A stretch of 64,000 nt of DNA from a virus, in the IMG/VR virus record IMGVR_UViG_3300044632_001319, one strand, 5' to 3'. Positions 11,231 to 32,149 of this stretch are shown here, one piece after another; position 1 is the stretch's first letter; each line of letters begins with the position of its first letter. Both the position numbers and the translations under genes were made by a program. Under the pieces are notes generated by a model. The model did not search any database and was not told the DNA's origin. It worked only from the letters and a program-made list of their open reading frames with translations.

Positions 11231-12985
11231 ATGAGTATCAAAAGTCAAAATGTTAAAAAGTTTATAACAGACACTGGAACGAGCAAACAATTGTTTGTAT
11301 TCGTCGGTGCTGACACCAAAAATACCACATCGGATTCATCACAAACAGAAATTGACATATGGAATGATTCTGATTTTTCACTCAGGGTTGGTCAGAATAG
11401 TTTAAGTGCTGTTGTACAAAATATAAAATGGGTACAGAAAAATGCATATGTTCCATGGTCTGCAACAACACAAAACGTTGGTAACTTTTACGCATACAAT
11501 GAACAAAACGGATATGTGTATCTTTGCGTCTCAGATAATGCAAAAAATACAATAAACCAAAATAAAAACATTTCAAACATAAGACCATCACACATAACTG
11601 GTATACAGTCATATTCTGATGGTTATTCTTGGTTAACCCTTTACAGAATCACAGCATCGCACGAAAGATTCATATCATCCCAATGGATTCCTGTTTTTTC
11701 TTTTGATACCTTTGATGCATCAGATCAACAAACACAACTGCAAAAAACACAATCCTTTTGTAATAGCAATACTGGAGAAACTGGTCAATGTGGAATATAT
11801 GCCAAGATTCCACTTAGCACAGACGACGATGACGGAACAATAGAATACCAAAAGGGTAATTTATTTACCGTGGCACAAAATATCACATGCAGTGATTGTC
11901 ATTATTTGATGTATAATGATGAAAAGTTTGTTTCAAAATTCTATTCTAACTCAACTACTGTACCAAGTACAATAACAATTAATGGTACATACGAAGAGGT
12001 TGGAAATTTAATACAATTAAATCAAATTTCAACTGCATCTCCATATTATTACCTATACAATATAAACGAAACAAATAATCTGGACGAAGGGTGTATTATA
12101 TCAGCATTTGTTGACCTAACAGGGTTATCGAACACTCAACTAATTACAAATACACTCAATCCATCTATTACAATTGTAAGCAATACTGGTTCTGGTGCTT
12201 CATTAAGATTCACAACTTCAATATACAACGATTCGTATGTAGTAGATGGCATAGAAGTTATCTCTAGAGGATCGAACTATAAAGATTATAGATTGTCAGT
12301 CAATAATAATAACTTTTTAGGAATATCTGGTGATACACTATTAAATAAGATAAGATTAAATCTAGATAAAATCGACCACATCGGAGTTGATCCTATAAGT
12401 GTTCTGGGATCCCAACATGTGATGATCGATGCTAGAATTGAAAAACAAAATATAGTTAATTCTGGAATAGGATTACCAACAAATGTGAATTTCTTCGGAC
12501 TTGTGGAAAACCCACTTGGAATATCTGGATCGACACAAGTAATTTCTGGTTCGAATATTAACAAGAAACTAGATTCAATTTTTAGAACCACGATAAAGGC
12601 AGAGGCATCTGTTGTAGGATCTCCGTCGTTGCTTCCAGAAACAGATGAAAAATATGATACCTCACCATCGGTAGGCGATGAAGATCCATTGACCGATGTG
12701 ATAATTGGTGGAGTATCTGACGTTGTAGGTGGATCACCATCTACATCCACAATCGAAATCAAAAATGTTCCATATTCAAAATCTACATCTTTAGTTGGAT
12801 CAGAACTTATAGGACCAATCGGAGAGAGTCCAAAAGTAGGAACAGTAATAAACACAATAGTAGAAGTTCCATCATTCGTACAATATACTGGAAATATTCT
12901 TTCAACAACTAAACTGAGTTCTAACTTGCCAGTATCGGATGTAGATTCAGTTATTATCCGTATAAATATGGTCAGAGGAATGTAA
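11231..12985 (+). CDS. gp8: Baseplate wedge subunit gp8-like
   Basis: FY......VY.C.S.N, S..RP.H..G.....DGY.W..LY.I, F.S..WIPV, GLVENP, YTG.IL. Confidence 0.8.
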   Translation: MSIKSQNVKKFITDTGTSKQLFVFVGADTKNTTSDSSQTEIDIWNDSDFSLRVGQNSLSAVVQNIKWVQKNAYVPWSATTQNVGNFYAYNEQNGYVYLCVSDNAKNTINQNKNISNIRPSHITGIQSYSDGYSWLTLYRITASHERFISSQWIPVFSFDTFDASDQQTQLQKTQSFCNSNTGETGQCGIYAKIPLSTDDDDGTIEYQKGNLFTVAQNITCSDCHYLMYNDEKFVSKFYSNSTTVPSTITINGTYEEVGNLIQLNQISTASPYYYLYNINETNNLDEGCIISAFVDLTGLSNTQLITNTLNPSITIVSNTGSGASLRFTTSIYNDSYVVDGIEVISRGSNYKDYRLSVNNNNFLGISGDTLLNKIRLNLDKIDHIGVDPISVLGSQHVMIDARIEKQNIVNSGIGLPTNVNFFGLVENPLGISGSTQVISGSNINKKLDSIFRTTIKAEASVVGSPSLLPETDEKYDTSPSVGDEDPLTDVIIGGVSDVVGGSPSTSTIEIKNVPYSKSTSLVGSELIGPIGESPKVGTVINTIVEVPSFVQYTGNILSTTKLSSNLPVSDVDSVIIRINMVRGM

Positions 12986-13709: not shown

Positions 13710-16037
13710 ATGGCATTCAATACCACTATAAATCAACTCACAGGAACCTCTACCTTTTTCGATTGGTTCAACAAAGAAAATAATGAAATTATTTCTAAAC
13801 TAAATCAATGCACAGTTTCTGGTGTAACAAGTGGTGATGGTGTTCTTGCATCATTGAATGCTTCCTCTGGATTAGTCACATTAAGCATTGGTGGAACCTC
13901 TGGAACAATAACAACTGGACTTAGTTTTGCGGGAGATGTTTCATTCTTAGGTGAAGCAGTCCTGCCAAACACCTCGTTTAAGATTACAGGAATAACATCA
14001 GGTTCTCCAGGATATAGTTTTGGATCTGTAGTCAAGATATCCTCATCTGGATACACACTTGCTAGAGCAAACGATCCAGATTCGGCAGAAGTTGTTGGTG
14101 TTTTATCTTCATTCGACACAACATATTCTGTTGTTACACTCACGGGAAGAATAGATGGCAATTTTACAAATGTTGCTGGTGGAACTCTTTCTCCTGGTTG
14201 CATTTACTTCTTAAGTCCCACCGCAAGAGGAAATATAACAACCACAGAACCAACTACGATTGGTTATGTTTCTAAACCAGTAATTCTTGGTCTAGGAGAA
14301 ACCGCTGGATTGGTCTTACAATATAGAGGCAACTATTTAAATGGTTCTATAAGCGGTGCTGGTGGTTCTGGTGGCAATAGAATATATTTCACATTACCAG
14401 CATCATCAAATCCTGGAACTTATGGATTCTCTGCTGGATACTTCTTATCATATGCGAAAGAACAATTAGACGGCAACACATTCATGCACAAATTTTTGGT
14501 TGACACTGGAAGAACTTCAATCAATGGTTGGTTCTTGAGTGCTGCAAACGATGTTGCATTTCCATTAGGTGCTGGAAATTATGGTCCAATGCCAGGTGAG
14601 GAAGAATTTATAGTAGGTATGGTTGAATCTATCACGACAAGTGGATCAGATTTGATATATCAACTTATCACTAATGGTCAAACTACAGTAATACCATATA
14701 GCATATCATCATACGCTTCATCTAAAGTAGGAACATGGTTTGTCTCTGGAACAACTTATGCAATTGCTCCTGCTGGAATAACACAAATAGTACCAACACA
14801 AATTGGAGCATATAACCCAGGAACTAAAGTTGGTATGGTATTTGATTCAAGTGTGCCAAACTGGTATGTTGATATAAAGAAAGTAGAAATTAGAACAGCA
14901 GGATCTCCTGTAAATATCAACAACACAACAAATGTTTACGATGTGTTAACTGATTCCACAAACTATGCATATAATGGAGATTTTTCAATATGGCAAAGAA
15001 ATGTGGGAAGAGATTCGGTATACAATAATAAAAATAGCACATACTTTGCTGATGGTTGGATTTTTAGACAAAATAATATCGATGCAGGAAGTGTTCAAAC
15101 ACTACAAAGACAAACACTTTCATCTGTAAGTACAGAAGTTGAAACTAATCCAGATTATTATATTGACATTAAATGTGTTGCTGCTCCAGCTGGTGCTAAT
15201 CCCGAAAACGGAGAGCATTCAATAGGTCATGTCATTGAAAATATTAAAACATTCAACGGCACTACAATTACAGTAAGTTTCTATGCAAAATGTGCTTTAT
15301 CTGGATATAGTCTAGATGTTTATCTTGCAAGGTATTCTGCTGGGTCTAGAATAAGAAAATACACAATCGACACAGTTGATGTCACCACTTCTTGGAAGAA
15401 ATATACACTTCAATACGAAGTGCCCGAACTAAATGCAAGTCCACCATTCACAGACGATTATCTTGAAATTGGTGTAGACCTTATTCCTTCGGTGAAGAAA
15501 GCATATGATCTTTCTTTATCTACTGGAACAAATATTACATTCAGTATAGCATCATTCAATGTGTTTGAGGGTGCATATAAGAATCCATTCCACAAATTTG
15601 AAAAATATGAAGAGAAGTTGAAGAAGGCACAACGATTCTACTACACAACATATACATCGGGTCAAACTATTGCAACACCCACTATGTCTGAGCAAGATGA
15701 ACCAGCACTAAACTGCCATAACTTCACATATCTCCCCAATGCTCCTTTCTCAATATTGAAACTTCCTGTTGAGCAAAAGAAAACTCCAACTGTAAGTGTA
15801 TATTCTCCAAAGACAGGACTTGCTCCAGAATTATACAATTATACAGCAAAAAGAGATCTAAGAAATGCTGGAAGAACCATTGGATTTAATGGTCAAATAA
15901 GAACACCAGTATTGAATTCTTTATCTGTCGCGACCAAAGAAGACACAACTTCAATTAGATTGAATATTGGTCCAGGCGCTGTACATTATGATGTTTTATT
16001 CTGCCAGTTAGTATCAGATGCAAGTTATCCAATTTAA
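13710..16037 (+). CDS. Tail fibre/appendage protein with a C-terminal carbohydrate-binding-like domain
   Basis: N-terminal TFFDWF.K.NE attachment motif; YTLARAN...AEVVG...G.IYFLS domain; NGDFSIWQR...FADGW...TITVSFYAK...TTSWKKYT...AQRFYY typical of phage fibre jelly-roll domains. Confidence 0.6.
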   Translation: MAFNTTINQLTGTSTFFDWFNKENNEIISKLNQCTVSGVTSGDGVLASLNASSGLVTLSIGGTSGTITTGLSFAGDVSFLGEAVLPNTSFKITGITSGSPGYSFGSVVKISSSGYTLARANDPDSAEVVGVLSSFDTTYSVVTLTGRIDGNFTNVAGGTLSPGCIYFLSPTARGNITTTEPTTIGYVSKPVILGLGETAGLVLQYRGNYLNGSISGAGGSGGNRIYFTLPASSNPGTYGFSAGYFLSYAKEQLDGNTFMHKFLVDTGRTSINGWFLSAANDVAFPLGAGNYGPMPGEEEFIVGMVESITTSGSDLIYQLITNGQTTVIPYSISSYASSKVGTWFVSGTTYAIAPAGITQIVPTQIGAYNPGTKVGMVFDSSVPNWYVDIKKVEIRTAGSPVNINNTTNVYDVLTDSTNYAYNGDFSIWQRNVGRDSVYNNKNSTYFADGWIFRQNNIDAGSVQTLQRQTLSSVSTEVETNPDYYIDIKCVAAPAGANPENGEHSIGHVIENIKTFNGTTITVSFYAKCALSGYSLDVYLARYSAGSRIRKYTIDTVDVTTSWKKYTLQYEVPELNASPPFTDDYLEIGVDLIPSVKKAYDLSLSTGTNITFSIASFNVFEGAYKNPFHKFEKYEEKLKKAQRFYYTTYTSGQTIATPTMSEQDEPALNCHNFTYLPNAPFSILKLPVEQKKTPTVSVYSPKTGLAPELYNYTAKRDLRNAGRTIGFNGQIRTPVLNSLSVATKEDTTSIRLNIGPGAVHYDVLFCQLVSDASYPI

Positions 16038-16048
16038 CGGAGTAATAC

Positions 16049-17179
16049 ATGCCAAGTTGCAGCAATAGTTCCAATATTAGTTCATCGATAAACACATTAA
16101 GTGTTGCCCAGGGTGGTTCACGTTTATTGGTTTCAGTACCATTAGTCGCTGGATTGACATTAGGAAATGTAATTAGATATGATATTTCTACTTCAGGATA
16201 CACTGCATCTAGAGCAAACCTTGCTGAAAATTCAGAGGTATTTGGAGTTATTGAAAGTTATGATTCAGTTTCTTCTAGATTCGGTGTTGTTTTATATGGT
16301 TCTATAACTTTAGATTCTTCTAAATTTGCTGACATGGGTAGTGGTGGTGGTTCTGGCGGAAATGATATTTACTTTTTAAGTGGTCAAACTGCTGGCATTT
16401 TGCAAAATTTAGCACCAACAAATTTAAACCATATCGTAAAACCAGTATATCAAGTTTCTCCACATGGATCGTACACGGGTGTAGTTGTCAACTACCTAGG
16501 ATATAAAATAGGTGGAGATATTCAAGCAGCATTTACCGACAATGAGTCTTTGGGAAATATTCAAATTGTTGTTGGAGATACAACATTCGATGAGGGATAT
16601 GTTGATGCATCAATCTCACACGAATTGCCAGTTGCAGATTACCCAGAATACTACTCAAAGTTTGGAACTGCTTATGGATACGTTGAAAGATTAACTGTAA
16701 GCGAGAGTGTTCCAGGATCGATAGTATCTACTCTAACTGCAACACAAAGCACTTCATCATATACAGGAAAAGTTGTTTCTGTCGATTATGCAAATAAATA
16801 CATTTATGTGTTTAAGAATCCAGCAACATCTTTATCATCAACAAACAAACAAATTTCAATTGCAACTAGTGGAACGACCTCAACTAAACTGACAGTCACA
16901 TCTAGTTCAATATATTCAGTTTACACTCCAGTTGTTACAATCAATCAACCATTAACGGTTTCTGGTAAAAATGGAGAAAATCTGACAGTATCACAAAAAA
17001 TTAAAATTGGTCTGAAAGTAAAACCACTCGGTGTACAAGTGACCGTCCCAACAAATGTTACCGCTTCATCTCTAACAGCAACAGTGTTGAAAGTTGGTAC
17101 GAGTGAAGATAATGTTGAAACAATATTAGATGATTTCGAGTCAAGAATTTCTGCGATTGAAACGCGATTGAGAATGTAA
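16049..17179 (+). CDS. Virion structural protein paralogous to the N-terminal domain of the upstream fibre, with a C-terminal coiled coil
   Basis: YTASRAN...SEVFGVI...IYFLS..G....P..KPV shared with 13710..16037; ends LDDFESRISAIETRL. Confidence 0.55.
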   Translation: MPSCSNSSNISSSINTLSVAQGGSRLLVSVPLVAGLTLGNVIRYDISTSGYTASRANLAENSEVFGVIESYDSVSSRFGVVLYGSITLDSSKFADMGSGGGSGGNDIYFLSGQTAGILQNLAPTNLNHIVKPVYQVSPHGSYTGVVVNYLGYKIGGDIQAAFTDNESLGNIQIVVGDTTFDEGYVDASISHELPVADYPEYYSKFGTAYGYVERLTVSESVPGSIVSTLTATQSTSSYTGKVVSVDYANKYIYVFKNPATSLSSTNKQISIATSGTTSTKLTVTSSSIYSVYTPVVTINQPLTVSGKNGENLTVSQKIKIGLKVKPLGVQVTVPTNVTASSLTATVLKVGTSEDNVETILDDFESRISAIETRLRM

Positions 17180-17180: not shown

Positions 17181-20100
17181 ATGATATACGGAAGTAGTCC
17201 ATACACACAAAGAAATATAGTAGGCACAACAGGACCAACAGGAAACACTGGACCAACTGGTTCAACTGGAAATGATGGCAATCCTGGCGCAACTGGTAGA
17301 ACAGGAAATACTGGTGGTGATGTAATTGGTATCACACTAGCAAATAATACTGTAATTACTACATTTTCTGACAATACTAGTTTTGTAGGATCAAATATAA
17401 TTGGAGAAACTGGATCCTATTATATCTTCGTCGGTGCTGAAAACGTTTCGGGTGATGGCATTCCTCTTGTATCGGGTGTTTCATATGAATACAGCAACAC
17501 ATCAGCAGTAGGATCTGTTCGTGTAAGAGGATTTACGACTTCATCTTCTAGAGAAGGTGCTGCTGTAGTCAAAATTAATTCAGATGTAGATTCTAATTTA
17601 TTAGATATAACTTATAATCTTAATAATATCAAGTATCTTGGTATTTCTGGTGGAATAGATGGTCAACTAGTAGTATACAGAACAGGAACAGAATTTTATG
17701 GTCTGTCTGGAACAAACTACGATCCAGATACGCAGACAGTTGATTTGCAATTCATGAACTATGGTGAGCGTGTACACTACGTTCAACCAACAAAGAAAAC
17801 AATATATGATTCTAATGGTGCTGCTACCATCGGCAGATATTTTTACTGGAGTATAGATTGGGAAAAGGCAAATATTTTTGTTCTAAACAAATATACACCC
17901 ACTGGCGGAGAACGTGTAGATGCTCAAATTTTACTGTTCAGAAATCCACCATCTGGAGATGTTGCTAAAGGCATAACAGTTATTATTCCTTCTGGAATAA
18001 CTTCTTCATCTGAAGTTTTAACACAATATGCCGTTACGGATAATCTTAATGATGGTGTAACTTTAGACACTGGAAATTATGATATATCATGGCCATTGTC
18101 GTATCCACCCTGTCTAACTACTGGCACTGACGTAATCAATATGATATCTTTGGATAACATTTGGTATGCAAACTTTGGTGTTTATAGTGGAAGCAGTGAG
18201 CAAGTAGAATGGAATGCAAACTATGCAAATTGTTTAGAATCCATTAATCTTTCAGATTATCAATACGTTCCACCAGAAGACGGTGGCAATGGTGGTGGTG
18301 GAGGAGGCGGTGGTGGAGGTGGTGGTGGAGGTGGTAGTAGTTTCTGCAAAACACCCACCACAATAGGATTATGTTGTATTGCTTGTGATGCTGGCGATTC
18401 ATTTGTTACCACTTGTTCAAATTGTGAACCATATGTTGCACAGGGAGTAGCTCAGTTTTTCCCAGAACAAAGTGATGGATATGCTGGATGTACGGCAGAA
18501 GATGCAACTAGAGGCGTTTGCTGCTATCGAAATGCTGCTGGTACTATAGTTAAAAATAATGATCCTGCTGGTGTTAGACTATGCGATTGTACAAGATTGG
18601 CATCAGATTACGCTGGAAGTCAATGGTTTAGATGGACAGAATTCAGTACATGTGTACCAAACATAAATGCAATAAACTGTCAGGATACTTTTGATGGGTT
18701 TGGAGCATGTTGTGATGGTTTAGGAAATTGCGCAAGAGATAGACAAACAACATGTGAGTCCAGTGGAAGATATTGGCAAGGTATTGGTAGACCCTGCACA
18801 TACAATGATGGATTTACAGATGTGCAAACTTGTAGAAGTGGATCTGGTGCTTGTTGCGTTTCAGGCACATGTACTGGTAACGTCAATGGTGAAACTTGTA
18901 TAAGTTCTGGTGGTAAATACTTTGGATGTCAAATTCCTTGTGCCAATTACGAATGTATTTCAGCATATCGTGGTTGCTGTGCTAGTGAATCAGATCCATT
19001 TATAGTTGAGCAACACTGGCAAGGAACGACACCACTTCCAAACAACTGGGCATTTGAACAGAGTGGTGCAAATCTTGCAGGAACTGGAACAATAGCACAC
19101 GAATTGAAAGTTGGAGATGAATTTGCTGGAGGAATTGTTGCTGGAATATTTAAACCAAAAGGAACAAGATGTTTTGGAAACACTGCATTTGGTGGATATC
19201 CTCCTCAGTTTATTCCACCAGCAAACAATAACACAGCTCAATCACAACAACTCTTTAATTTTTTAAATAATGGTGCAGAAAAGTCGTGTGACTACTATTT
19301 TAGTCAATATGATCCCTCTGGATATGGGTTTACACTAGAAAATGGTCATAACGGTGACGATGATGCTTGGTTGCTGATTGTTAGTAAGTTTCCAGTCATA
19401 ATCGAACAAAGATATTGTGCTACCTCGAATAATTTTCAAACAGCTCAACATATAGCATATATTGCGCCAAGTTTATTTAATTCTACACCAGCAATACCAA
19501 CTGCGGCAAATATTGAAAATGCAACTCCTACAGTTATCAATGAAGATAATAACAGTTTTAGAACAATATATTCTAAAAACTTTAGATTAACACATGGTGG
19601 AACTGCATTCTCTTCAATCGCTTTGGATAACTTTGCAAGCACAGCACCAGCATTATCTGAATCCACAAGATCTAATTTTACAATATGCGATACAAATCAT
19701 CAAGGATCGAATCTTACACATGATGGTGTGTATGGTACAACTCCAGGTGCAACATATTGGGCAAACACCATAGCATTTAATGGATGCTCTGATACACCAT
19801 ATACATGCAACGAATGTGCTGATTATCCATTCGTTAGATCCAGAAGAGGTTGGACTTCAACAAAGGGTGGGATGAATGGAAACTTCAGTAGAAACTGGGG
19901 TCTATTTAACACAATAAGAATTATAAATTCTGATCTTGCCGAATATTATCTTGCATCTGGAAATGGATTATTCCCAAATGGAAATAAATCTTTATATGGT
20001 GGAAGAGCATATATTAGTGAGGCAGATCCTGGATTTACTGGAATATTTCAAGCACTTCAATCACCACCAACAACAAGTTTAAATTATCAACAAACAACTG

Positions 20101-21044
20101 CTGGTGAAGGTTGTTCGATATGGAATCGTTATTATTATCCATCAGATCTTCCTCCAACAGTTTCTGAAATTGGTGCACCAATAAATCCATTAAATCTCGC
20201 GAAACAATATGTTCCATTTACTGGACCAGAAACGAAATATAATTTAGGGTTTGGTAATAATGGTTGGTTAGGAATTCTCTATCCTCAACTCTCTCGTTGG
20301 TATATTCCCAGCATAGATGAATTGTCATTTATCGCAAGTAGATGTTTAGATCCAAACGTTAACTTGCAGCAGAAAATACAAGATGCATCTGGTATTCGCA
20401 TTGGAAATATTTTCTTGAATTCGAATACAGGAGCAAATGCTGCTGGTGCTGGACTGACTGGTTGGGTTTGGTCATCAACAATAACGTTTAATGAAACAGT
20501 ACCTGGTCAGTATCTACAAGGATCTGGTTCTGTAAATGGTATCACCGCATCATCACCTCAACCACTGAGTGGAACAAACGTAACAGTAGATGGGTTCCAA
20601 CAAAATTATTCTGCTGGTCAAATCACTGCATCACAATTCAGTAAAGCATGGGCATTAAAATTTGATACTGGAACAACCACCACACTACCAAATCCAAACG
20701 GATTTAAAGTAATGAAAAGAAATGACAGTAAACAAGGAAATGACAATGTCAATAATCGATTTGAACTTCGACTTGTTCGTCAAATTCGTTGCGATAGAAA
20801 ATTTTATTGGAACGGTGATAATCCAAGATACAGAAACACATTCTGGGCAGTTCCTAGATTGACTCCATCAGATGTAACTACTGGTAATTTTTATTCTCAT
20901 AGTGGAAATGCTTTATCAGTAACTGCACCCCCATGGCCTGGCAATGGTATTATTGCTCCACCAAATACATTACTGAATGGATTGTTCAATAATTTAAATT
21001 CATTCGTTGGCACTATACATAAAAATAGTATGAGAACTAATTAA
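17181..21044 (+). CDS. Collagen-like, Cys-repeat, DUF1566/C-type-lectin-like fibre protein 1
   Basis: MIYGSS then GTTGPTGNTGPTG; poly-Gly linker; GLCC/GVCC/GACC repeats; VGDEFAGG, WYIPSIDEL, WVWSST, LRLVR. Confidence 0.65.
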   Translation: MIYGSSPYTQRNIVGTTGPTGNTGPTGSTGNDGNPGATGRTGNTGGDVIGITLANNTVITTFSDNTSFVGSNIIGETGSYYIFVGAENVSGDGIPLVSGVSYEYSNTSAVGSVRVRGFTTSSSREGAAVVKINSDVDSNLLDITYNLNNIKYLGISGGIDGQLVVYRTGTEFYGLSGTNYDPDTQTVDLQFMNYGERVHYVQPTKKTIYDSNGAATIGRYFYWSIDWEKANIFVLNKYTPTGGERVDAQILLFRNPPSGDVAKGITVIIPSGITSSSEVLTQYAVTDNLNDGVTLDTGNYDISWPLSYPPCLTTGTDVINMISLDNIWYANFGVYSGSSEQVEWNANYANCLESINLSDYQYVPPEDGGNGGGGGGGGGGGGGGGSSFCKTPTTIGLCCIACDAGDSFVTTCSNCEPYVAQGVAQFFPEQSDGYAGCTAEDATRGVCCYRNAAGTIVKNNDPAGVRLCDCTRLASDYAGSQWFRWTEFSTCVPNINAINCQDTFDGFGACCDGLGNCARDRQTTCESSGRYWQGIGRPCTYNDGFTDVQTCRSGSGACCVSGTCTGNVNGETCISSGGKYFGCQIPCANYECISAYRGCCASESDPFIVEQHWQGTTPLPNNWAFEQSGANLAGTGTIAHELKVGDEFAGGIVAGIFKPKGTRCFGNTAFGGYPPQFIPPANNNTAQSQQLFNFLNNGAEKSCDYYFSQYDPSGYGFTLENGHNGDDDAWLLIVSKFPVIIEQRYCATSNNFQTAQHIAYIAPSLFNSTPAIPTAANIENATPTVINEDNNSFRTIYSKNFRLTHGGTAFSSIALDNFASTAPALSESTRSNFTICDTNHQGSNLTHDGVYGTTPGATYWANTIAFNGCSDTPYTCNECADYPFVRSRRGWTSTKGGMNGNFSRNWGLFNTIRIINSDLAEYYLASGNGLFPNGNKSLYGGRAYISEADPGFTGIFQALQSPPTTSLNYQQTTAGEGCSIWNRYYYPSDLPPTVSEIGAPINPLNLAKQYVPFTGPETKYNLGFGNNGWLGILYPQLSRWYIPSIDELSFIASRCLDPNVNLQQKIQDASGIRIGNIFLNSNTGANAAGAGLTGWVWSSTITFNETVPGQYLQGSGSVNGITASSPQPLSGTNVTVDGFQQNYSAGQITASQFSKAWALKFDTGTTTTLPNPNGFKVMKRNDSKQGNDNVNNRFELRLVRQIRCDRKFYWNGDNPRYRNTFWAVPRLTPSDVTTGNFYSHSGNALSVTAPPWPGNGIIAPPNTLLNGLFNNLNSFVGTIHKNSMRTN
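18282..18334 (+). repeat. Poly-glycine linker (GGN codon run)
   Basis: ggtggcaatggtggtggtggaggaggcggtggtggaggtggtggtggaggtgg encodes GGN followed by about 14 Gly. Confidence 0.9.
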
Positions 21045-24000
21045 TGATATACGGTTCATCTAGAATAACTCAAATTGTAACTGGAAATATTCCAAATGCA
21101 GTTCCAGGAAACACTGGACCTACTGGTCCTACTGGTCCTACTGGATCAACTGGTGCTACGGGTTTGGATGGTTCAATTGGTCCCACGGGTGCAGGAATTA
21201 CTGGTGCTACTGGTTCTGGAATAGGCATAACTTTAATTGCAAATAATGTTGCATATGGATTTACTGGTCTAAAAGGATCTGCTGGTGTTTCCAGTGGAGA
21301 TGAAACCTATAGAATTATTGGACTTGGTATTGTAAACCAAGATGTTTCTGCAAATATCGTATATGGCGAAACTGTTTCTTTGGGTGCTGGTCAAACTGCC
21401 TTATTCAAAGGCATAACGATATCAGGGCAAATACCAATACCAATTGCTAATTTTGTTGGTGTGAGCTCAAATAATGTTTCTACATTTTATATTTACGGTG
21501 CAACAGTACCAAATGCGAATTTTCCAATTGGTAATACTGGGGAATTATTGTATGTAAATAGCGAAGCAGGATTTGGAATTTCTCCACTTAAAGCATCAAG
21601 TGCTCCAAACACAAAGTGGGTTCCAGATGAAAGACAACTGATCATAGATCAAAACTTTACAAGAGAACCAATATATCAAAATAAAAATTGGACTACAGTT
21701 GGTGCTCCAGAATTTCAATTTACAAACACACCAGGTGCATTCTCTTATTACGCAACACTCGGGTCTGCTACATTTGGTACAGCACTGATACAAAATACAA
21801 TATATCCAAATTTTATTTTCTATTCGGGTGCTGGAATATATGGATTGGAAAATGATCCAAATACAGATACAATAAGTTTAGGTCAATCAATTATAATTGG
21901 ACTTACTAGTGGTAAAACATTTGAAAAAATTAATTTCATAGGAACCACTGGTATTTCATATTCAAACACATACAAACCACAATCAGTTTCTCGCGATAAT
22001 ATAGGATCTTGCTGTTTCTGTTCTGTAGAAGCAACAAATAAAATATGTGTTGATTATGTTACCTCAGAATTTTGCACTGCGGTATCTGGTGTATTCAATT
22101 CTGAATCATGTAATGATAGAACAAGTGGATCTGATTGTTTTGTGGAAGGTGCTTGCTGTATATACGATATAGAATTAGGTACAGTAAGATGCATAAACAC
22201 TACAAAGGAAAAATGCACACTCTTCAATGGTTCATTCAACGAAACTAAATCTTGCAACAATGTATGGGTAAACGGTCAACTGTTCACATGTCCCACCAAC
22301 TTCTGCAACGCTGGAACTAGACAACTAGGAAAATGTTGTGTTCAGGGCAGATGTTTTAGTCTAACACAAGCAGATTGCTCGTCAATATTTGGAGCATCAT
22401 TCACACCAGGACCAACATGCATTTCAGAACTAAACGATCCAACGTGCTGTGGTAAACTTGAACTAAATGGTGCTTGCTGTGTGCAAGGCAATTGTGTCAA
22501 CAATGTATCACCAGCACAATGTGCAAACGCATATAATGGAATATTTCAAGGTTCTGGATCAAAATGCAGTGAAGTTTCTTGCTGTGGTTATTCGTTCTCA
22601 GATGATTATTTTAGAGGTGTGTGTGCTGAATCTTGCAAAGCACTCGGTTCGCAACAAATATACTCTTGCCTAAATGTTGGAGATAAAATAGGTGGTGGTT
22701 ATTTTGTTGGATTTGTTGGTATGCCAAATCCATGTGATGAATATAATCAACCACTATTAGCATACGGTGAACCACTGGAATGTATGATATTCCCACGCGG
22801 AAATCTTACAAATGTTCCAAGTTGGTATTTAAAGACATGCAAAGGAACAAATCCAAATACAAATTCTGGATGTATAGAATATTTTGCTAGAACATATCCA
22901 GAGATATTACCAAAGAGTTCATTGACATCTAGATGTCTACTAAAAGCAGGAGTTCCATTTGTGCAGCAAGCGTATGCATTAAATGGAATTACATGGCCTA
23001 GTGAAACACTTTTCGAAGGTGGATTTGCATATAATCCAAATCGTGGTACACACTCTTATTCGCTGATTGGTTCTGGTCTTGCCGTAGAATACTTGGATGG
23101 AACAGAAGATAATCTGTACAGATATCTTGCGAGCAGGGTGTATGGAAATTCTAGCATTCATGTGCTGTGGGCATTGATTGTTGCACCAGAAGACGTTGAA
23201 ATATCTGGTGGAAGAGCACTTTCATGGGGCATGATGCAGGGATGTGTAAATGCAAACTCAAGTGGTGAACCAGTTCAAATTGTGAACGAAGAAATACCAA
23301 CATATCCAGTCGATGGTTTGCTGACAACAAGAATACACGATGCAACATCCAAAGAAAATCCACAGTATTGGTACAGAGGCACAACAGATACAAATGCATA
23401 CAATAGATTCAACTTTGGCAACGGTCCTGCTTGGGAATTTAATGTAAGTGCAGAATCAATAAACAACAATATCAATGAATTTAAATCAGCATATTCTGAT
23501 ATGTGGGATAGAAAAAATCCACTAGATTCTGCTATAAGACAAATATCAATCATCAATCAGAATAATCTCTATGGTCATAATGATTGGTATATTCCAAGCA
23601 TCACGGAACTAAATTATATTTACAGTAACGTTGCAAAACTAAATGCAGCACTTGCAGTAAATGGAGAACAGATACTTGGAGGAGACGAGTATTGGAGTTC
23701 TACAAGCGTAAGTAGATTACAATATTGGGATCCTGCTGAACCATTAAATAAAGATTTATATTCTCTAGAACCAATTAACTCACAGTTAGAACCATACCTA
23801 AGTTCAACAAGATTAACATCTACTAATAATAATTTCAATCTAAATGAAGATTCTGCTTATAAGTTCACACTGGCAGTATCAAACGGTCAGAAGATGTTAA
23901 CACAGACCTTTAATAATTTAAACCAGAATGCTTCGGGTAGAATGAATTCAAGAAGCAGATCAAGCAAGATTGCTAATCTCAGAGCAGTAAGAAGAATACC

Positions 24001-24118
24001 ATTGGTTGTAACATGTGGTGGTTTTTATTATAGCGACAACATTCTAAATACTTATTGGAAATCTGGAACAACTGGTTGTTCATCTTGCTTAGATCATGTT
24101 GAAGGAATTTGTCCATGA
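21044..24118 (+). CDS. Collagen-like, Cys-repeat, DUF1566/C-type-lectin-like fibre protein 2
   Basis: MIYGSS then GNTGPTGPTGPTG; GSCC/GACC/GKCC repeats; VGDKIGGG, DWYIPSITEL, YWSST, LRAVRRI. Confidence 0.65.
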   Translation: MIYGSSRITQIVTGNIPNAVPGNTGPTGPTGPTGSTGATGLDGSIGPTGAGITGATGSGIGITLIANNVAYGFTGLKGSAGVSSGDETYRIIGLGIVNQDVSANIVYGETVSLGAGQTALFKGITISGQIPIPIANFVGVSSNNVSTFYIYGATVPNANFPIGNTGELLYVNSEAGFGISPLKASSAPNTKWVPDERQLIIDQNFTREPIYQNKNWTTVGAPEFQFTNTPGAFSYYATLGSATFGTALIQNTIYPNFIFYSGAGIYGLENDPNTDTISLGQSIIIGLTSGKTFEKINFIGTTGISYSNTYKPQSVSRDNIGSCCFCSVEATNKICVDYVTSEFCTAVSGVFNSESCNDRTSGSDCFVEGACCIYDIELGTVRCINTTKEKCTLFNGSFNETKSCNNVWVNGQLFTCPTNFCNAGTRQLGKCCVQGRCFSLTQADCSSIFGASFTPGPTCISELNDPTCCGKLELNGACCVQGNCVNNVSPAQCANAYNGIFQGSGSKCSEVSCCGYSFSDDYFRGVCAESCKALGSQQIYSCLNVGDKIGGGYFVGFVGMPNPCDEYNQPLLAYGEPLECMIFPRGNLTNVPSWYLKTCKGTNPNTNSGCIEYFARTYPEILPKSSLTSRCLLKAGVPFVQQAYALNGITWPSETLFEGGFAYNPNRGTHSYSLIGSGLAVEYLDGTEDNLYRYLASRVYGNSSIHVLWALIVAPEDVEISGGRALSWGMMQGCVNANSSGEPVQIVNEEIPTYPVDGLLTTRIHDATSKENPQYWYRGTTDTNAYNRFNFGNGPAWEFNVSAESINNNINEFKSAYSDMWDRKNPLDSAIRQISIINQNNLYGHNDWYIPSITELNYIYSNVAKLNAALAVNGEQILGGDEYWSSTSVSRLQYWDPAEPLNKDLYSLEPINSQLEPYLSSTRLTSTNNNFNLNEDSAYKFTLAVSNGQKMLTQTFNNLNQNASGRMNSRSRSSKIANLRAVRRIPLVVTCGGFYYSDNILNTYWKSGTTGCSSCLDHVEGICP

Positions 24119-27060
24119 GTAGTAGTTCAATAATTAATTTTGTCATATATGGACAATCTGGTAATGATGGTCCAATTGGAGCAACTGGTCCCACTGGACC
24201 CACTGGTGCTACTGGTGCTACTGGAAATACAGGTCCATATGGTTTATATTTTGTTTCTGCACAGGGTGTATCAAATTCTATTGTTTTAACATTTTCTGAT
24301 GGATCCACAGCACAAATTAACGGATCGTTCAGAGGTGCTACAACCGCAGACAAGACAGCAGGAATTGTTTTAGGTGGAAACACTGGCAATTCCATTGGAG
24401 TTCTCTATAATGTCTCTGGTGGAACTTTTAACTTCTATGGAATATCTGCATACGGTTCTTTAGTAGCATCGCTTACTGGAGATAATTTAGAATATATCTC
24501 AATTGATAGTATCTATTATGGTTCTGATATTATTGGAAATTATGATCCAACATCTTTATCTGCACCAAGAAAATTATTATATGTTGGAAACACTACAACT
24601 GCTTTTGGTGCAGATCTCAAATACAGATCTGACATTGGAACTGTTGGTCTGTGCGGTGCATTTGAATTTGCCTATACAGCAGTATCGTCTGGAGCAGCAG
24701 ATGATACAAGTATTCATTTAAATTCTGGATCAAAAATATATTCATACGGTCCACTAAAAAAGGGATTTGAGTTTGAGGGAAGTACGTTTGGCGTGCTTCT
24801 AAATGCCAACAATGGTGGCGTGTTTCACCTCCGAACTCCAATTGGTATAAGAGGAATTACTGGTTCGTTTAGAACAAACGAAATAGCATCAATTACATTG
24901 ATCATAGATTCAGATAATGTTTGGAACTTTCCAGTAAATGTATACTTCGCACCAGACGAAAATTATCTATCTTGCGGCAAAAATATATTGGGACTGATGT
25001 CACATGATGGTGGTGCTACATGGTTGGCAACTGCATCTCATAGAGGTCATGGTGTAGAAAATGTTGGAAGACAATGCGTTCCTGGATCCTTATATGGTTC
25101 TTGTTGCTACAGTAAAGCAGACGGAACAAAAAACTGTAAGGATTATGTAACTGTTGAAGAATGCGATAAACTATTTGGTAATTTTTATCCAGCACAATCT
25201 TGTAATGATTCTTGTGTATCCCCAAATAGTTTGTGTTGCGCGAATGGTACATGTATAGAAAATATTTCTGCTGCTGAATGTGAAAAGTTTGGTGGAGACT
25301 ATTGGCAAGGATATACTTGTGGATTTGCATCTGGCACATTAAATTATCCAGATCCTGCAATTTATACAACACCAGAAAGTATAAGAGCAAATGGTCGTTT
25401 CTGTTACGACCCATGTGGAGATGTGAAGACTGTTTGCTGTAAAGATGGTAGATGTTTAGGAAATTATACAAGAGTTCAATGCGAATTGGTTCTTGGTGGT
25501 AAATCTCTAATTGGTGCTGAGTGTGCAGATGTCGATTGCTGCACATATGATTCAATACCTGGAGCATGTTGCATATGTACGACAGATCAAAACGGAAACA
25601 CAACATCAACATGCACACCCAATCTAACATATTCTGAGTGCAAAGCACTTAATGGATATTATATGGGACCAGGAAGACAGTGTAATGATGTAAGTTGCGG
25701 ATGCGTTTGCGGAAATACAACCACGACAATTGGTGCTTGCTGCGAAAATGGAATCTGTAGAAACACAACATTTGAAAATTGTGCTGGTACATTTATAGCA
25801 ACACAAACATGCAACACATATGAATGCAATCCTGGAATATGCTGCATCAATGGAAGATGTAGTGATATGTCTCAGTTAAATTGCAACGAAGCAGGAGGAG
25901 TATTTACTCCAAATACAAACTGTGCATCGACTGTTTGCACAGATACTAATCCTCCAGATCCAGATCCACCAGAACCACCAGTTGGTACTGGATCATGTTG
26001 TAGGAACGGACAGTGCTCACAAACCACACAGCAAAATTGTGGTGGTTCTTGGTCTGCTGGTCCATGTAGTTCTGCAAACTGCTCAGATCAAGATACAGAT
26101 AATGGTGGTGAGGGACATCCACCAGATAGAGATGGTCAAGGTGGCGGATTTGACAATGACGATGACGGTCCAGGCGGTGGTGGTTCTGGAAACAGCAATC
26201 CTCCTTCTACGCCAGGATCTTGTGATGGTCTAACACAAAATTGTTGCTGTATAAGTTTCGATTACTGCTATAGAAATGGATCATCATTCACTAAAAGAAC
26301 AGTCACTAGAAAAATATGTACACCTCTCGGCAACCCACCAGTTCCATGTGATAATTTTGCATTTGATAATTGTGCAAATACACATCTTCGGTTTGTTAAC
26401 ATTGCAAAATGCTGCGCTGCACGCAAAGGTTACTGCACAGTAACTGGAATCGATATAGATTGTGGTCTGATTCCCAGTTCAGTGCTTGATGAGTATTGTC
26501 CACAAATTACAGATCAGGATCTCTATAATTTCTTAAGAGATGAAGCATGTTATTCTGTGGATTATGCTGATGTTACACCAGGCATTTTTAACGAAATTGT
26601 ATGTGGAACACATCCTGTTATATGTCAAATAGATCCAACAAATCCTTGTACAAATGTAACAACTGCTAGTTCAGTTGCTTATAATGCACAAACATGCGGC
26701 GAGTCTCAATTGCCACCACTCCCAGGAAAATATCAAGGTGAGGGATTTGATATTTCGTATAGATCTTGTATAGACATCAACGGTGTCAGCACATGCTCAC
26801 ACGGTCAGTATGCTGCATGTGATCCACAATGTTCGAGAATGACAGATCCATGCTGTAGACTTGAATGTAATCGATTGGGTCTTAAGAGTTGTCCAGAATG
26901 TTTAGTAGAAAGTGGATGTGGTGGTGGAACATCTCCGCTTAAGTATACTACTGTTCCTGTAATAAAAAATGTAAAAATTATTATAAATAACGAAGAACAC
27001 TGTTTACCATTGTTGTGTGAAGGCGATGATTGCGATGGTTATACTTTCTGCGACGAGTAA
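24115..27060 (+). CDS. Collagen-like, Cys-repeat fibre protein 3 (about 7 G[AS]CC-type repeats, Cys-rich C-terminus)
   Basis: ATG at 24115 overlaps the upstream stop; VIYGQS then GATGPTGPTGATG; repeats of CC-x3-10-C-x7-C-x3-GG-x6-C. Confidence 0.65.
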   Translation: MSSSSIINFVIYGQSGNDGPIGATGPTGPTGATGATGNTGPYGLYFVSAQGVSNSIVLTFSDGSTAQINGSFRGATTADKTAGIVLGGNTGNSIGVLYNVSGGTFNFYGISAYGSLVASLTGDNLEYISIDSIYYGSDIIGNYDPTSLSAPRKLLYVGNTTTAFGADLKYRSDIGTVGLCGAFEFAYTAVSSGAADDTSIHLNSGSKIYSYGPLKKGFEFEGSTFGVLLNANNGGVFHLRTPIGIRGITGSFRTNEIASITLIIDSDNVWNFPVNVYFAPDENYLSCGKNILGLMSHDGGATWLATASHRGHGVENVGRQCVPGSLYGSCCYSKADGTKNCKDYVTVEECDKLFGNFYPAQSCNDSCVSPNSLCCANGTCIENISAAECEKFGGDYWQGYTCGFASGTLNYPDPAIYTTPESIRANGRFCYDPCGDVKTVCCKDGRCLGNYTRVQCELVLGGKSLIGAECADVDCCTYDSIPGACCICTTDQNGNTTSTCTPNLTYSECKALNGYYMGPGRQCNDVSCGCVCGNTTTTIGACCENGICRNTTFENCAGTFIATQTCNTYECNPGICCINGRCSDMSQLNCNEAGGVFTPNTNCASTVCTDTNPPDPDPPEPPVGTGSCCRNGQCSQTTQQNCGGSWSAGPCSSANCSDQDTDNGGEGHPPDRDGQGGGFDNDDDGPGGGGSGNSNPPSTPGSCDGLTQNCCCISFDYCYRNGSSFTKRTVTRKICTPLGNPPVPCDNFAFDNCANTHLRFVNIAKCCAARKGYCTVTGIDIDCGLIPSSVLDEYCPQITDQDLYNFLRDEACYSVDYADVTPGIFNEIVCGTHPVICQIDPTNPCTNVTTASSVAYNAQTCGESQLPPLPGKYQGEGFDISYRSCIDINGVSTCSHGQYAACDPQCSRMTDPCCRLECNRLGLKSCPECLVESGCGGGTSPLKYTTVPVIKNVKIIINNEEHCLPLLCEGDDCDGYTFCDE

Positions 27061-27063
27061 AAT

Positions 27064-28584
27064 ATGTCAATACAGTTTAGATCAAGAATAATCCCAGCAA
27101 TCGATTACTCAACCATATTAACAAATTATGGTTTTTGTTGTGGTCTTTCTGGATCTAATGGACTTCCAATATCAAAGACATATATTGAATGTGTGACCGA
27201 AGGTGGATTTTATGTCAAGGGTGCATCAGGGCAAGAAGTATCTTGTCCACAATACGATGATCGCTATGGATGCTGTTGTTCTTGCTCTTATGTCGATCCA
27301 GATGATTATAATCAAATAGAAGCATACCCACCATCTATACCATATCTTACATCTGGAACACGAAGCAGAATGACCAAATGTGAGTGTGAAAGAATTGGTG
27401 GAAAGTTTACACCAACCGCAGATGGCAATTGCCCTGCACTCACCAATGAAAATTGGGAATCATATTGTGCTGGACAACACCCAGATAATCCAACACTATT
27501 AATAGATGTAAGAGCACCAAGATCTTGCTGTCATCTGGAATATGATCCAAATACTGGTTGGCCAACAACAGTGGTGTGCAAGGATGTATGCACATCAGCA
27601 GACTGTGCTGAACTTTCAACTGAAACTTATCCATCTACATTCACTCTAAATGCTAGATGTAATATTCCACTCAGAGCAAACGGCAATCTAACAAATTGTT
27701 CAAATGCTCAAAATCTAGCATTTGTTGCAAATCAACCAATATATCAAGGGTTTGATATGGGTTCTTGTTACTCTTTAGTAAATGTCAATGGAACATATGA
27801 ATACGAATGTTCAATTACTCCACAAGAAAAGTGTGATGGGTATTGGATAATTCAACAAGATCAAAATAATGCATTCTGTAAAAACACACTTCAACCAACA
27901 AATCCACAAAAATCTGGAAGTGTTTATCTACCAGAATCGATGACTCTTTCAGCATTTAATGCATTGGGTCTGACTAATGGGGATGCATATCTTGGTGGTA
28001 CATTCATTGGAATATACAAAACAGGATCAAGCAGCGGCAAAAGCAGTGAAATATATGGAAATATAAATTTTGGAGATGCTTCTTTTGGAAGATTTATTCC
28101 AGATTCTATCGGTGGAACACATTCTCAGTGGGCAATTATTGTAGATGAAATACCAGTATCTTTACCATTCCTAGGAGAATCTGAAAAAGACATAGATGTC
28201 TCTACTTCGCTATGGGATGGGTATTATAACACCTACGGAAACGGCAGCACATTTCAGGGTGTTAAAACTGCTTTAACTAATCAAATAAGATATCAACCAA
28301 GAAAAGGATTTCTTGATTACTACATACCATCGATATACGAATTGAATTTCTATGCCGCATATCTTTATAATAACGATATCAAAGATAAAGGAAACCTGAT
28401 TTCATCATCATTCTTCAACACGAAATATATTTCGTCTGGACCATCGAAATCCAAGATAAATAATTCTAGTTTCGTCTATGGTCAAGCAATAAAGTTTTAC
28501 TATACATCAAACTATAAAAACATCTTAATAGATAAGAGAAATACTGAAACTGTTTTATTCTTTAGGCGAATTTTATTAACATGA
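27064..28584 (+). CDS. Cys-repeat, DUF1566-like protein 4 (no collagen stalk)
   Basis: GFCC, GCCC, RSCC, GSCY repeats; GDAYLGG, DG.YNT, DYYIPSIYEL, FFRRI. Confidence 0.6.
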   Translation: MSIQFRSRIIPAIDYSTILTNYGFCCGLSGSNGLPISKTYIECVTEGGFYVKGASGQEVSCPQYDDRYGCCCSCSYVDPDDYNQIEAYPPSIPYLTSGTRSRMTKCECERIGGKFTPTADGNCPALTNENWESYCAGQHPDNPTLLIDVRAPRSCCHLEYDPNTGWPTTVVCKDVCTSADCAELSTETYPSTFTLNARCNIPLRANGNLTNCSNAQNLAFVANQPIYQGFDMGSCYSLVNVNGTYEYECSITPQEKCDGYWIIQQDQNNAFCKNTLQPTNPQKSGSVYLPESMTLSAFNALGLTNGDAYLGGTFIGIYKTGSSSGKSSEIYGNINFGDASFGRFIPDSIGGTHSQWAIIVDEIPVSLPFLGESEKDIDVSTSLWDGYYNTYGNGSTFQGVKTALTNQIRYQPRKGFLDYYIPSIYELNFYAAYLYNNDIKDKGNLISSSFFNTKYISSGPSKSKINNSSFVYGQAIKFYYTSNYKNILIDKRNTETVLFFRRILLT

Positions 28585-28594: not shown

Positions 28595-29149
28595 ATGGGT
28601 TGCAATTGTAATAAAAACAAAACACAACAAACTCCTCAAGTAGAACCAGTAACATTTCGTAAAGAAGAAATAAAAAAACCAGAAACCCTGACGGAAGGCA
28701 TCAAGCAAAAAATGACCATGATGCAGAGTTTTGCATCAGCAATTTCTTCTAGAGGATTCAATAACGAAAAAGTTACAATACCCATGAAACAACTGAGAGT
28801 CGTCAGTTGTTTCGGAAACAAAAATCAGGGTGGTGCTCTTCCTCCCTGCGAACACCTAAAGGAAAGTACAACCCCTGGTAAATTCTATTGTGGTGGTTGT
28901 GGATGCGGAGATAGAAAAGGAACATGGTTGGTTGCTGATGGTGACGAATACAGTAAATTGGATTATCCTCGTTTAAATTGCCCATTGCAAATGCCAGGAT
29001 TTTCAAATTACGAAAAATCAAAACCAGATGAGGCAAATGTTCCAGTAACTCGTAGATATTATATCGAACAGTTACCATATGCGGAAATAGAGAAAATTCC
29101 AGTGAAAACTCACAATCCACCAGTAAAACAAGAAGAACCCAAAAATTAA
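28595..29149 (+). CDS. Small Cys-rich hypothetical protein
   Basis: MGCNCNK; SC...PC...YCGGCGCG...LNCP; AAAGG RBS upstream. Confidence 0.6.
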   Translation: MGCNCNKNKTQQTPQVEPVTFRKEEIKKPETLTEGIKQKMTMMQSFASAISSRGFNNEKVTIPMKQLRVVSCFGNKNQGGALPPCEHLKESTTPGKFYCGGCGCGDRKGTWLVADGDEYSKLDYPRLNCPLQMPGFSNYEKSKPDEANVPVTRRYYIEQLPYAEIEKIPVKTHNPPVKQEEPKN

Positions 29150-29193: not shown

Positions 29194-30003
29194 ATGGCAG
29201 GACCATCAGGACCAAATTCAAGAAGAACATTAATAGAGCACTGTCTGCGTACACTCGGTGCTCCAGTGATTCAAATTAACGTCGATTACCAACAATGTGA
29301 AGATCGTCTTGATGAAGCATTGCAGTATTTCATCACTCGTCATTATGATGGTGTACAAAGAGTCTATTTTAAATATGAGTTGACACAAACCGATTTAGAT
29401 AGAGGGTTTATACAGGTAGAAGACATTGATACACCATCTGGTGATCCAACTGGACCCAGAGGAGAGGATATCGTATCGGTTATTAAACTTTTTAGATTCG
29501 GTACTCTATCTGGTGTGGATATGTTTGATGTTAGATATCAATTAGCATTGACTGATTACTTTGGAATAAATCGTGGATTAAATGGAAGTCAATCAACACC
29601 ACTGGCAGGATATCAGGTAACTATGCAATATATTAGTTTACTTGAACAATTTTTTAGTCCTGAGAAGTCTATAAGATTTAGCAAAGTAACAAATAAAATA
29701 TATGCAGATGCATTCAGTCAAGACATAACTGCTGGACAACATGTTGTTATTGAAGCATATGCAGTTCTAGACCCAGAAACCCACACTTCGATATACAATG
29801 ATCGTATGTTGAAAAAATATGTTACAGCACTGATCAAGAGACAGTGGGGTTCGAATATGTTAAAATATGATGGTGTTCAACTTCCAGGTGGTATCGTGTT
29901 CAAGGGTCAACAAATATACGATCAAGCAACACAAGAAATAATGATGATCGAACAAGAGTTTGAAAGAGCATATGAACTTCCAATTGATTTCATGATCGGA
30001 TAA
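29194..30003 (+). CDS. gp13: Neck protein gp13
   Basis: LI.HCLRTLGAPVIQINV...Q.EDRLDEALQYF...HYDG; KKYVTALIKRQWG.N..KYDGVQLPGG. Confidence 0.95.
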   Translation: MAGPSGPNSRRTLIEHCLRTLGAPVIQINVDYQQCEDRLDEALQYFITRHYDGVQRVYFKYELTQTDLDRGFIQVEDIDTPSGDPTGPRGEDIVSVIKLFRFGTLSGVDMFDVRYQLALTDYFGINRGLNGSQSTPLAGYQVTMQYISLLEQFFSPEKSIRFSKVTNKIYADAFSQDITAGQHVVIEAYAVLDPETHTSIYNDRMLKKYVTALIKRQWGSNMLKYDGVQLPGGIVFKGQQIYDQATQEIMMIEQEFERAYELPIDFMIG

Positions 30004-30006
30004 CAA

Positions 30007-31682: not shown

Positions 31683-32149
31683 ATGAAGATTCCGCAGAGG
31701 AAAAACTTTCTAAGATACTTGATATTGAAATACTAGACCAACCTAAAAAAGAAATAACTAAAGCAGAAGATCTAATAACAAAAGTTAAAATAAAAAGAAA
31801 AGATCAAATAAGACAGGATTTTGATTCTGCTAGAAAGAATATGAAAGAACTCATAAGTTCTGGATTTGAAGCATTAGATGGAATCATGAAAGTTGCCGAA
31901 GCAGGGGATTCTCCAAGAGCATATGAAGTTGCTTCGATACTCTTGAAGACTATAAGCGAAATCAATACTGATTTGATGGATATGCACAAAACCACTGCTG
32001 ATGCTCTTGGAGTGAATAAAATAGTGAAAAATAATACAACAAATAATTCAATATTTGTTGGATCAACTAGGGATTTGCAAAATATAATCAATCAATCTCG
32101 TAGTCAATTGAAAGCGATCAATTCGGAAGAAATAGAAAATGACAGCTAA
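31679..32149 (+). CDS. gp16: Terminase small subunit gp16
   Basis: DF..AR.N...LI..G..AL......A....SPRAYEV; NNSIFVGST.DL. Confidence 0.92.
   Translation: MNEDSAEEKLSKILDIEILDQPKKEITKAEDLITKVKIKRKDQIRQDFDSARKNMKELISSGFEALDGIMKVAEAGDSPRAYEVASILLKTISEINTDLMDMHKTTADALGVNKIVKNNTTNNSIFVGSTRDLQNIINQSRSQLKAINSEEIENDS

Follow-up and report, generated by a model that had tools for sequence, protein, structure and literature searches.

A repeated cysteine-rich module in four putative fibre proteins of an uncultured T4-like phage

The putative fibre block and its repeats

The window analysed here is a 64,000-nt stretch of viral DNA (IMG/VR record IMGVR_UViG_3300044632_001319), which PHROG and Pfam scans identify as a segment of a T4-like myovirus genome. 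Four adjacent genes at positions 17181-28584, which we call A to D, contain 18-19 copies of a cysteine-rich module of about 35 residues. The original prediction for this DNA had described four tandem Cys-rich repeat genes here, and all four are plus-strand open reading frames (ORFs) at those positions. The three repeat examples that it quoted are found letter for letter at A556-587, B476-513 and C576-610, where copies are named by gene and residue. Coordinates are collected in Table 1.

Table 1. Genes, module arrays and landmarks in and around the putative fibre block
Feature	Position	Strand	Basis and remarks
gp8-like baseplate wedge gene, upstream landmark	11231..12985	+	phrog_438, E 1e-17
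Three structural ORFs between the gp8-like gene and gene A	12985-17179		follow the gp8-like gene
Gene A, putative fibre protein, 1287 aa	17181..21044	+	ORF and translation
Module array of A (residues 396-600)	18366..18980	+	hidden Markov model (HMM) scan, Cys map, alignments
Gene B, putative fibre protein, 1024 aa	21044..24118	+	ORF and translation
Module array of B (residues 321-545)	22004..22678	+	HMM scan, Cys map, alignment
Gene C, putative fibre protein, 983 aa	24109..27060	+	TTG start at 24109; public calls use ATG at 24115 (981 aa)
Module array of C (residues 323-660), seven copies	25075..26088	+	HMM, AlphaFold2
Last 284 residues of C, second and unrelated Cys-rich domain (37 Cys)	26206..27057	+	Cys map
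Gene D, 506 aa	27064..28584	+	ORF; same position in contigs L002 and L003
Three degenerate modules of D (D23, D69, D153)	27130..27660	+	weak HMM matches, CC-anchored Cys spacing
orf184, small Cys-cluster protein closing the fibre block	28595..29149	+	8 Cys, C-x13-C ... YCGGCGC ... CP
gp13-like neck protein, downstream landmark	29194..30003	+	phrog_211, E 3.5e-35

The module can be written as GxCC-x4-5-C-x7-8-C-x10-13-C-x4-C, with four copies in A, four or five in B, seven in C and three weak ones in D. We counted 11 occurrences of a core pattern (CC-x3-12-C-x6-9-C-x9-16-C), compared with a mean of 0.15 and a maximum of 2 in 1000 residue shuffles. Cysteine makes up 3.1, 4.0, 8.3 and 4.5% of A, B, C and D, compared with 1.23% in the other 51 ORFs of the window.

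Nine copies are canonical (A508, A556, B429, B476, C374, C441, C542, C576 and C628), with independent E-values of 1e-11 to 1e-16 in the HMM search. These align column for column with 86 bacterial copies on the framework G-A/x-C-C-x4-5-C-x7-8-C-x3-GG-x-[FYW]-x-G-x-G-x2-C-x4-C, and C3, C4, C17 and C30 are invariant in the joint alignment. Another 9-10 copies are long or degenerate variants (A396, A445, B321, B369, C330, C485, D23, D69 and D153), and there are stubs at A597 and B511. The predicted total of about 20 copies was therefore a fair count, but only about half of them strictly fit the motif as it had been written. Some copies are missing the sixth cysteine, and the copies in D are weak.

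In the array of A, the long variants A396 and A445 are accompanied by canonical copies at 18702-18815 and 18846-18956 and by a CC stub. B has its long variants at B321 and B369, canonical copies at 22328-22435 and 22469-22582, and one degenerate copy. The canonical copies of C are at 25228-25335, 25429-25539, 25732-25827, 25834-25938 and 25990-26082, together with the long variants C330 and C485. We assigned the modules of D by inspection, and they are the least certain part of the annotation.

Outside the arrays, A, B and C share an N-terminal IYG[SQ]S motif (MIYGSS in A and B, VIYGQS in C) and about ten G-x-y triplets. In A, the collagen-like G-x-T tract (residues ~15-47) is followed by a poly-Gly stretch (368-384) and then the module array. 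The C-terminal region of A is large and includes, at residues 1040-1048, the Lcl_C-type motif WYIPSIDEL, which is common to B. Gene B has a collagen-like tract (~21-59) and the array, and its C-terminal head contains a core that resembles Lcl_C/DUF1566 (residues 823-889, window positions 23510-23710). Gene C runs from its collagen-like tract (24151-24243) through an N-terminal domain, the seven modules and a Pro/Gly/Asp linker to the second Cys-rich domain. D has no collagen-like N-terminus; it begins with its degenerate modules and has a head with YYIPSIYEL at residues 418-426. By eye, no signal peptide is apparent at any of the four N-termini, as had been predicted.

Matches to tail-fibre PHROGs (5073, 6320 and 366) lie on the collagen-like N-termini, in A on residues 10-85 only. 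The sole other PHROG match in A-D is a weak one to a family of unknown function (phrog_4245) on the C-terminal head of B. Pfam Lcl_C has no match in A or D, which share only the core motif W/YYIPSI-EL with B. None of the 65 metagenomic homologues of C has a Pfam domain. The resemblance of these proteins to the Legionella collagen-like adhesin Lcl and to collagen-like phage tail fibres consists of the N-terminal G-x-y tract and the Lcl_C-like core of B. They differ in that the tracts of A-C are short and the collagen and Lcl_C scores fall below the Pfam cut-offs (for the collagen triple-helix repeat PF01391 in B, 11.9 bits against 27.2). Neither Lcl nor the matched fibre PHROGs match the module arrays, the PHROG matches being almost wholly on the collagen tracts.

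The C-terminal Cys-rich domain of C is presumed to be a distal tip. By tblastn, it is kept only in the two closest relatives, the IMG/VR contigs L002 and L003, and therefore appears to be a fast-evolving tip. In both of these contigs A-D, orf184 and gp13 are syntenic with the window.

The block lies where T4 has gp9-gp12 and fibritin (wac). Upstream, gp53-, gp25-, gp6- and gp8-like baseplate genes occupy positions 1622-12985, and between the gp8-like gene and A there are the three further ORFs. Downstream, positions 29194-37333 hold gp13, gp14, gp15 and the genes for the two terminase subunits, sheath, tube and portal. The T4-type series on this side is gp13, 14, 15, 16, 17, 18, 19, 20, 21, 22, 23, and the block sits within the T4 structural block. 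No PHROG match to the gp9, gp10, gp11, gp12 or wac families was found in A-D or in the three upstream ORFs, and the suggestion that A-D replace these T4 genes holds on both position and lack of match. While A-D share the place of the T4 genes between the wedge genes and gp13, they differ from them in gene number, size and domain make-up. Because of the shared place in the gene order, A-D probably have the same general job, that of baseplate or neck fibres.

Spread and predicted fold of the module

We built a phage-only profile (A1) from the nine canonical window copies and searched it against 1.84 billion cluster representatives (clusters at 50% identity). It matched 1734 clusters at E<=1e-3, of which 466 also pass E<=1e-10 and 30 pass E<=1e-30, with a best E-value of 1e-88. 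Nearly all of the top 150 matches look bacterial, have signal peptides and lack a collagen N-terminus. Together they hold 1073-1077 modules, with the consensus GACCxxDGxCxxxTxxxCxxxGGxYQGxGTxCxxxxC and the commonest spacing CC-x5-C-x7-C-x13-C, and one of them is a named protein from a Phycisphaerae metagenome-assembled genome (MAG). Families that co-occur with the bacterial modules are surface and anchoring ones (Dockerin_1, GC-type dockerin, LTD, choice-of-anchor Q, cadherin-like, VWA and the type IX secretion system (T9SS) tail). The module itself has no model in Pfam-A or NCBIfam, and a 313-aa protein made up of six modules is assigned to no family. When one of the bacterial proteins (P0069) was used to look for related loci, no relative was found.

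The taxonomic distribution is strongly skewed. We scanned one genome per GTDB species with a degenerate DNA pattern of the module and obtained at least 120 matching stretches. Among the 80 matches listed, 61 are from Planctomycetota (38 of them Phycisphaerae), 9 from Candidatus Eisenbacteria, 5 from other phyla and 5 unnamed. Of the five from other phyla, three may be binning errors, each being confined to one short contig; the other two look genuine, an Ignavibacteriales MAG with 12 modules on 4 contigs and a Nitrospiraceae chromosome with 1 module. With a joint phage and bacterial profile (A4), we found the module in 25 of 151 Phycisphaerae-class genomes, most of those with 10 to more than 50 scored copies, and in none of 150 further genomes of a comparison phylum (that of a Chitinophagaceae MAG). 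The likeness to secreted proteins of Planctomycetota, to which the original prediction had pointed, is real.

Judged by these profile matches and alignments, the phage module is a homologue of an extracellular repeat that has undergone huge expansion in some Phycisphaerae. It has the same Cys framework as the GACC repeat of Planctomycetota and Candidatus Eisenbacteria and the same conserved Gly, Thr and aromatic positions; in the joint alignment, identity of the phage copies to the first module is 20-50%. On the bacterial side there are signal peptides, domains for anchoring (dockerin, T9SS, choice-of-anchor) and mainly CC-x5-C spacing. The phage proteins, in contrast, have no signal peptide, collagen-like N-termini, fibre heads, mostly CC-x4-C spacing, many long-hairpin variants and AT-rich codons. 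The phage members get outside by lysis and not by export.

The bacterial-type DNA pattern was also found in 84 IMG/VR stretches, with a median locus GC of 0.40 (range 0.32-0.70). Its range among uncultured T4-like phages is wide: at least 55 IMG/VR loci, counted as 55 of 86 viral loci with the module, have T4-like neighbours in common with the window, among them gp6, gp25, gp13-15, orf775 and orf376. The remaining 31 loci, including all of the GC-rich ones, lack those neighbours. Apart from the two closest relatives, TerL is only 55-63% identical to that of the window. Module-bearing ORFs in the IMG/VR loci reach 1925 aa and 217 Cys, and all modules of five related records sit in clusters of neighbouring large ORFs.

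The modules do not look foreign to the genes that carry them. G+C at third codon positions (GC3) is 0.17-0.24 in the module regions, the same as in the rest of the fibre genes. For 76% of 169 phage modules, the nearest non-Cys match is in another phage locus and not among the 1077 bacterial modules. These comparisons point to the module being an old resident building block of this phage group and not a recent capture. Ten IMG/VR contigs with GACC modules (L126, L128, L134, L151, L152, L169, L170, L198, L201 and L203) are GC-rich (0.59-0.70) and without the T4-like neighbours; they may be planctomycete phages or prophages, or bacterial DNA filed as viral.

Our literature searches found nothing relevant on this repeat or on planctomycete T4-like phages. 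The module is a large protein family that Pfam and NCBIfam do not model, with 1734 clusters reached from the profile of one phage, and a named model would annotate thousands of phage and planctomycete proteins now called hypothetical.

The predicted fold of the module is confident. For residues 320-660 of C, with 64 phage homologues aligned, AlphaFold2 gave a mean predicted local distance difference test (pLDDT) of 80.8, with the first four modules above 90. Each module is predicted as a beta-hairpin, a short helix and a strand, and the long variants C330 and C485 have a longer hairpin. A single module (C576-610), modelled from the joint alignment of 9 phage and 86 bacterial copies, gave a pLDDT of 91.4 and the same topology.

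Foldseek, run with the array model of 341 residues against the PDB and BFVD, found nothing at E<=0.001. We then aligned the single module exhaustively to 48,161 PDB representatives, and three chains reached the threshold of Z>=2. The best is 9xy4_A, which is iRhom1 (Z 4.1, root-mean-square deviation (rmsd) 1.2 A over 35 of 35 residues, 34% identity), followed by 8snl_B, which from its different numbering is iRhom2 (Z 3.8, rmsd 1.2 A, 29% identity). The third is a designed hairpin-helix-strand (EEHE) mini-protein (Z 2.8). The same two iRhom entries lead the list of structural matches for the array model. A segment of iRhom1 has the exact bacterial spacing CC-x5-C-x7-C-x13-C-x4-C, and there is a second partial copy.

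The matched region is part of the iRhom homology domain (IRHD), which is described as held together with 8 disulfide staples and whose fold its authors call unprecedented (PMC11248996). Animal iRhom1 and iRhom2 IRHD (PDB 9XY4, 9Q7Y and 8SNL), an extracellular and disulfide-stapled domain, is the only solved match to the module. Unlike the phage module it is a single compact domain of a membrane pseudoprotease and not a tandem array, and its function, ADAM17 support, is unrelated. The modelled module and part of the IRHD match in fold and Cys spacing at modest scores; homology is not established. The module connects settings that are rarely linked: fibres of a widespread uncultured group of aquatic T4-like phages, secreted proteins of Phycisphaerae and a few other phyla, and possibly the animal IRHD.

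Two other candidates were rejected. The membrane-proximal domain of ADAM17 is not the look-alike, as the matched chains are iRhom and ADAM17_MPD (PF16698) has no match in A-D; this model was also run on three bacterial genomes rich in modules and on two records of related phages, without a significant match. A "baseplate wedge subunit" (9f4a) came up as a PDB sequence match to the module at an E-value of 0.28, which is not significant. We did observe that a segment of this 341-aa subunit (9f4a/9f4b; …NGMCS…C…GGKWTP) resembles the C3-C4-GG-x-W core, and it is conserved in about 1467 GenBank enterobacterial T4-like phages.

Role of the arrays, host and cysteine chemistry

On balance, and with moderate confidence, we believe that A-D are four paralogous baseplate-attached fibre (adhesin) proteins with disulfide-locked bead stalks, from an uncultured aquatic T4-like myovirus. 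Their position in the T4 structural block, the tail-fibre PHROG matches on the N-termini and a repeat count far beyond chance argue for fibres. In this model, the IYG[SQ]S motif and collagen-like tract of A, B and C would trimerise and dock on the baseplate. The middle of each protein would be a string of three to seven GACC modules, each of which, we infer, three disulfides lock when lysis releases the virion into oxidising water. The oxidised array would form a stiff, protease-resistant bead stalk that sets the reach of the C-terminal binding heads. In A, B and D the head would be Lcl_C/DUF1566-like and in C a Cys-rich knot of its own, and four different heads could give the phage several receptor specificities.

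Disulfides in the modules are plausible because of the match to the disulfide-stapled IRHD, the strongest argument we have for three disulfides among the six Cys. The original prediction had offered three disulfides or metal sites per module; of this, the disulfides have gained from the IRHD match, and the pairing has been left ambiguous by Cys counting at the array ends. Most simply, oxidation of the beads would follow lysis. When and how virion disulfides form is a testable question posed by such dense Cys beads in cytoplasmically made proteins.

Several points weigh against the bead-stalk fibres. The presence of A-D in the virion, their trimer state and the spacer role of the arrays are all predictions from sequence. 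The match of B to Lcl_C/DUF1566 (PF07603; E 1e-6, 29.5 bits) is under the 34.9-bit Pfam cut-off. By sequence, iRhom1 matches the module with an E-value of 2.2, which is not significant, and the structural match (Z 3.8-5.0) is under the level that excludes chance arrangements. The presence and absence of cysteines at the array ends leaves the pairing ambiguous. Without signal peptides, A-D would be made in a reducing cytoplasm. The original prediction had advised a look for thioredoxin or Dsb genes elsewhere in the genome; DsbA was not found in five related viral records (30-68% complete), and these gave a single thioredoxin match, which is below the cut-off. We found no disulfide-forming enzyme among the window genes scanned with Pfam and PHROG, a set that leaves out about half a dozen smaller ORFs, mainly at 59.8-64 kb.

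A second possibility, which we consider rather improbable, is that the modules are themselves ligand-binding units (multivalent glycan or surface binders), so that the arrays would be the adhesive part of the fibre and not passive spacers. Bacterial modules occur beside dockerin, GC-type dockerin, LTD, cadherin-like, VWA and T9SS sorting domains, and this company makes them part of surface-interaction proteins. However, conservation is almost confined to structural residues (Cys and Gly), and the copies have no conserved surface patch in common. Copy number varies widely among related phages, up to 20 GxCC per ORF, which is typical of evolving adhesins, but it is the distinct C-terminal heads that look like binding parts.

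The original prediction went further and suggested that the modules came from the host and that the phage infects a planctomycete (Phycisphaerae-like) bacterium. We regard this as unlikely. The enrichment of the module in Planctomycetota and Phycisphaerae is strong, and the Atlas neighbours of protein C are Planctomycetota clusters. Low GC in the phage is no bar to such a host, as low phage GC with a GC-rich host is normal in marine cyanomyophages. However, the codon usage of the modules is fully phage-like and the module is spread across T4-like phages with distant TerL, and recent host derivation and a planctomycete host are therefore not supported. The phage copies mostly have their nearest relative in another phage, and the nearest cultured relatives of the window are Synechococcus myophages (identity 51% for portal and 55-57% for TerL). 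Dockerin_1 was not found in the five related viral records.

One related phage gives a further point against a planctomycete host. A module-bearing T4-like phage (L208, the IMG/VR record of L136; positions 1465-2708) has a permuted transfer-messenger RNA (tmRNA) of the two-piece type (RF04321, 70.8 bits), on which ARAGORN agrees. Its tag is VNKQLQTMIANQLAMAA, and it adjoins tRNA-Tyr, tRNA-Ile(UAU) and tRNA-Leu(UAA). The tmRNA of 38 among 41 Phycisphaerae genomes is of the standard one-piece form, and no permuted form scored above the cut-off in any of the 41. Together with GC3, the phage-nearest copies and the absence of Dockerin_1, the permuted tmRNA counts against a recent capture from a GC-rich host. 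The shared module does not show which host this phage infects, and for the phage group it is a weak but usable lead to hosts.

A bolder version would have a broad, wholly uncultured aquatic T4-like clade that infects Phycisphaerae or other Planctomycetota and builds its fibres from the Cys-bead module of its host phylum. Each set of fibre proteins would then contain some 50 or more disulfides, made with no secretory pathway and perhaps with the aid of orf184; we hold this to be a long shot.

We find it equally hard to believe that the modules are Zn or Fe-S type metal clusters, folded in the reducing cytoplasm with thiolate-metal bonds instead of disulfides: T4 fibres are known to use metal ions, the CGGCGC cluster of orf184 could handle metal, and neither signal peptides on A-D nor a disulfide-forming enzyme in the related records was found, but six Cys per module without a conserved His or Asp suits Cys4 sites less well than three pairs. 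In addition, the homologues in bacteria are exported proteins, disulfides staple the one solved structure that shares the spacing, and the third structural match is a designed hairpin-helix-strand mini-protein.

Surroundings of the block

The small gene that closes the block, orf184, is directly upstream of gp13 in all 12 of the related loci that include gp13, with 42-77% identity. Its nearest Atlas clusters are all viral, and it has no Pfam, PHROG or GenBank-phage match. It may be an assembly accessory; a role in bead oxidation would be speculation on our part.

Beyond the portal gene, the window continues with genes for prohead protease, scaffold, gp23, UvsY, UvsW, gp46/47, clamp and loader, and RegA. 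The Synechococcus myophages are the closest cultured relatives of the phage. Against 50,697 GenBank phages, the whole fibre block had no megablast nucleotide match, and the repeat region and orf184 had no tblastn match, although weak short modules could escape BLAST. The same phage is present on at least 14 contigs from several public samples, with JGI 3300046007 and 3300049629, SRR35488616 and ERZ28008667 among the sources. No tRNA genes were found in the window.

Three further features of the window are worth recording. A 1777-aa protein encoded at 2569-7902 matches the tail/hub family phrog_350 over its first ~390 residues and far exceeds the length of the T4 hub. In the interval between the portal and prohead protease genes, a 168-aa ORF (37357-37863) has a sub-threshold match to an EF-hand pair (26.7 bits, cut-off 30). 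Finally, positions 51412-59717 are very AT-rich (GC 25-29%, compared with ~35% elsewhere) and hold a sugar-handling cassette. Its genes include two fucosyltransferase-like/GT2 glycosyltransferases, an FkbM methyltransferase, WavE-like and kinase-like genes, a nucleotidyltransferase/HAD-like gene and a GDP-mannose-dehydratase-type epimerase, and the cassette could modify virion or host glycans.

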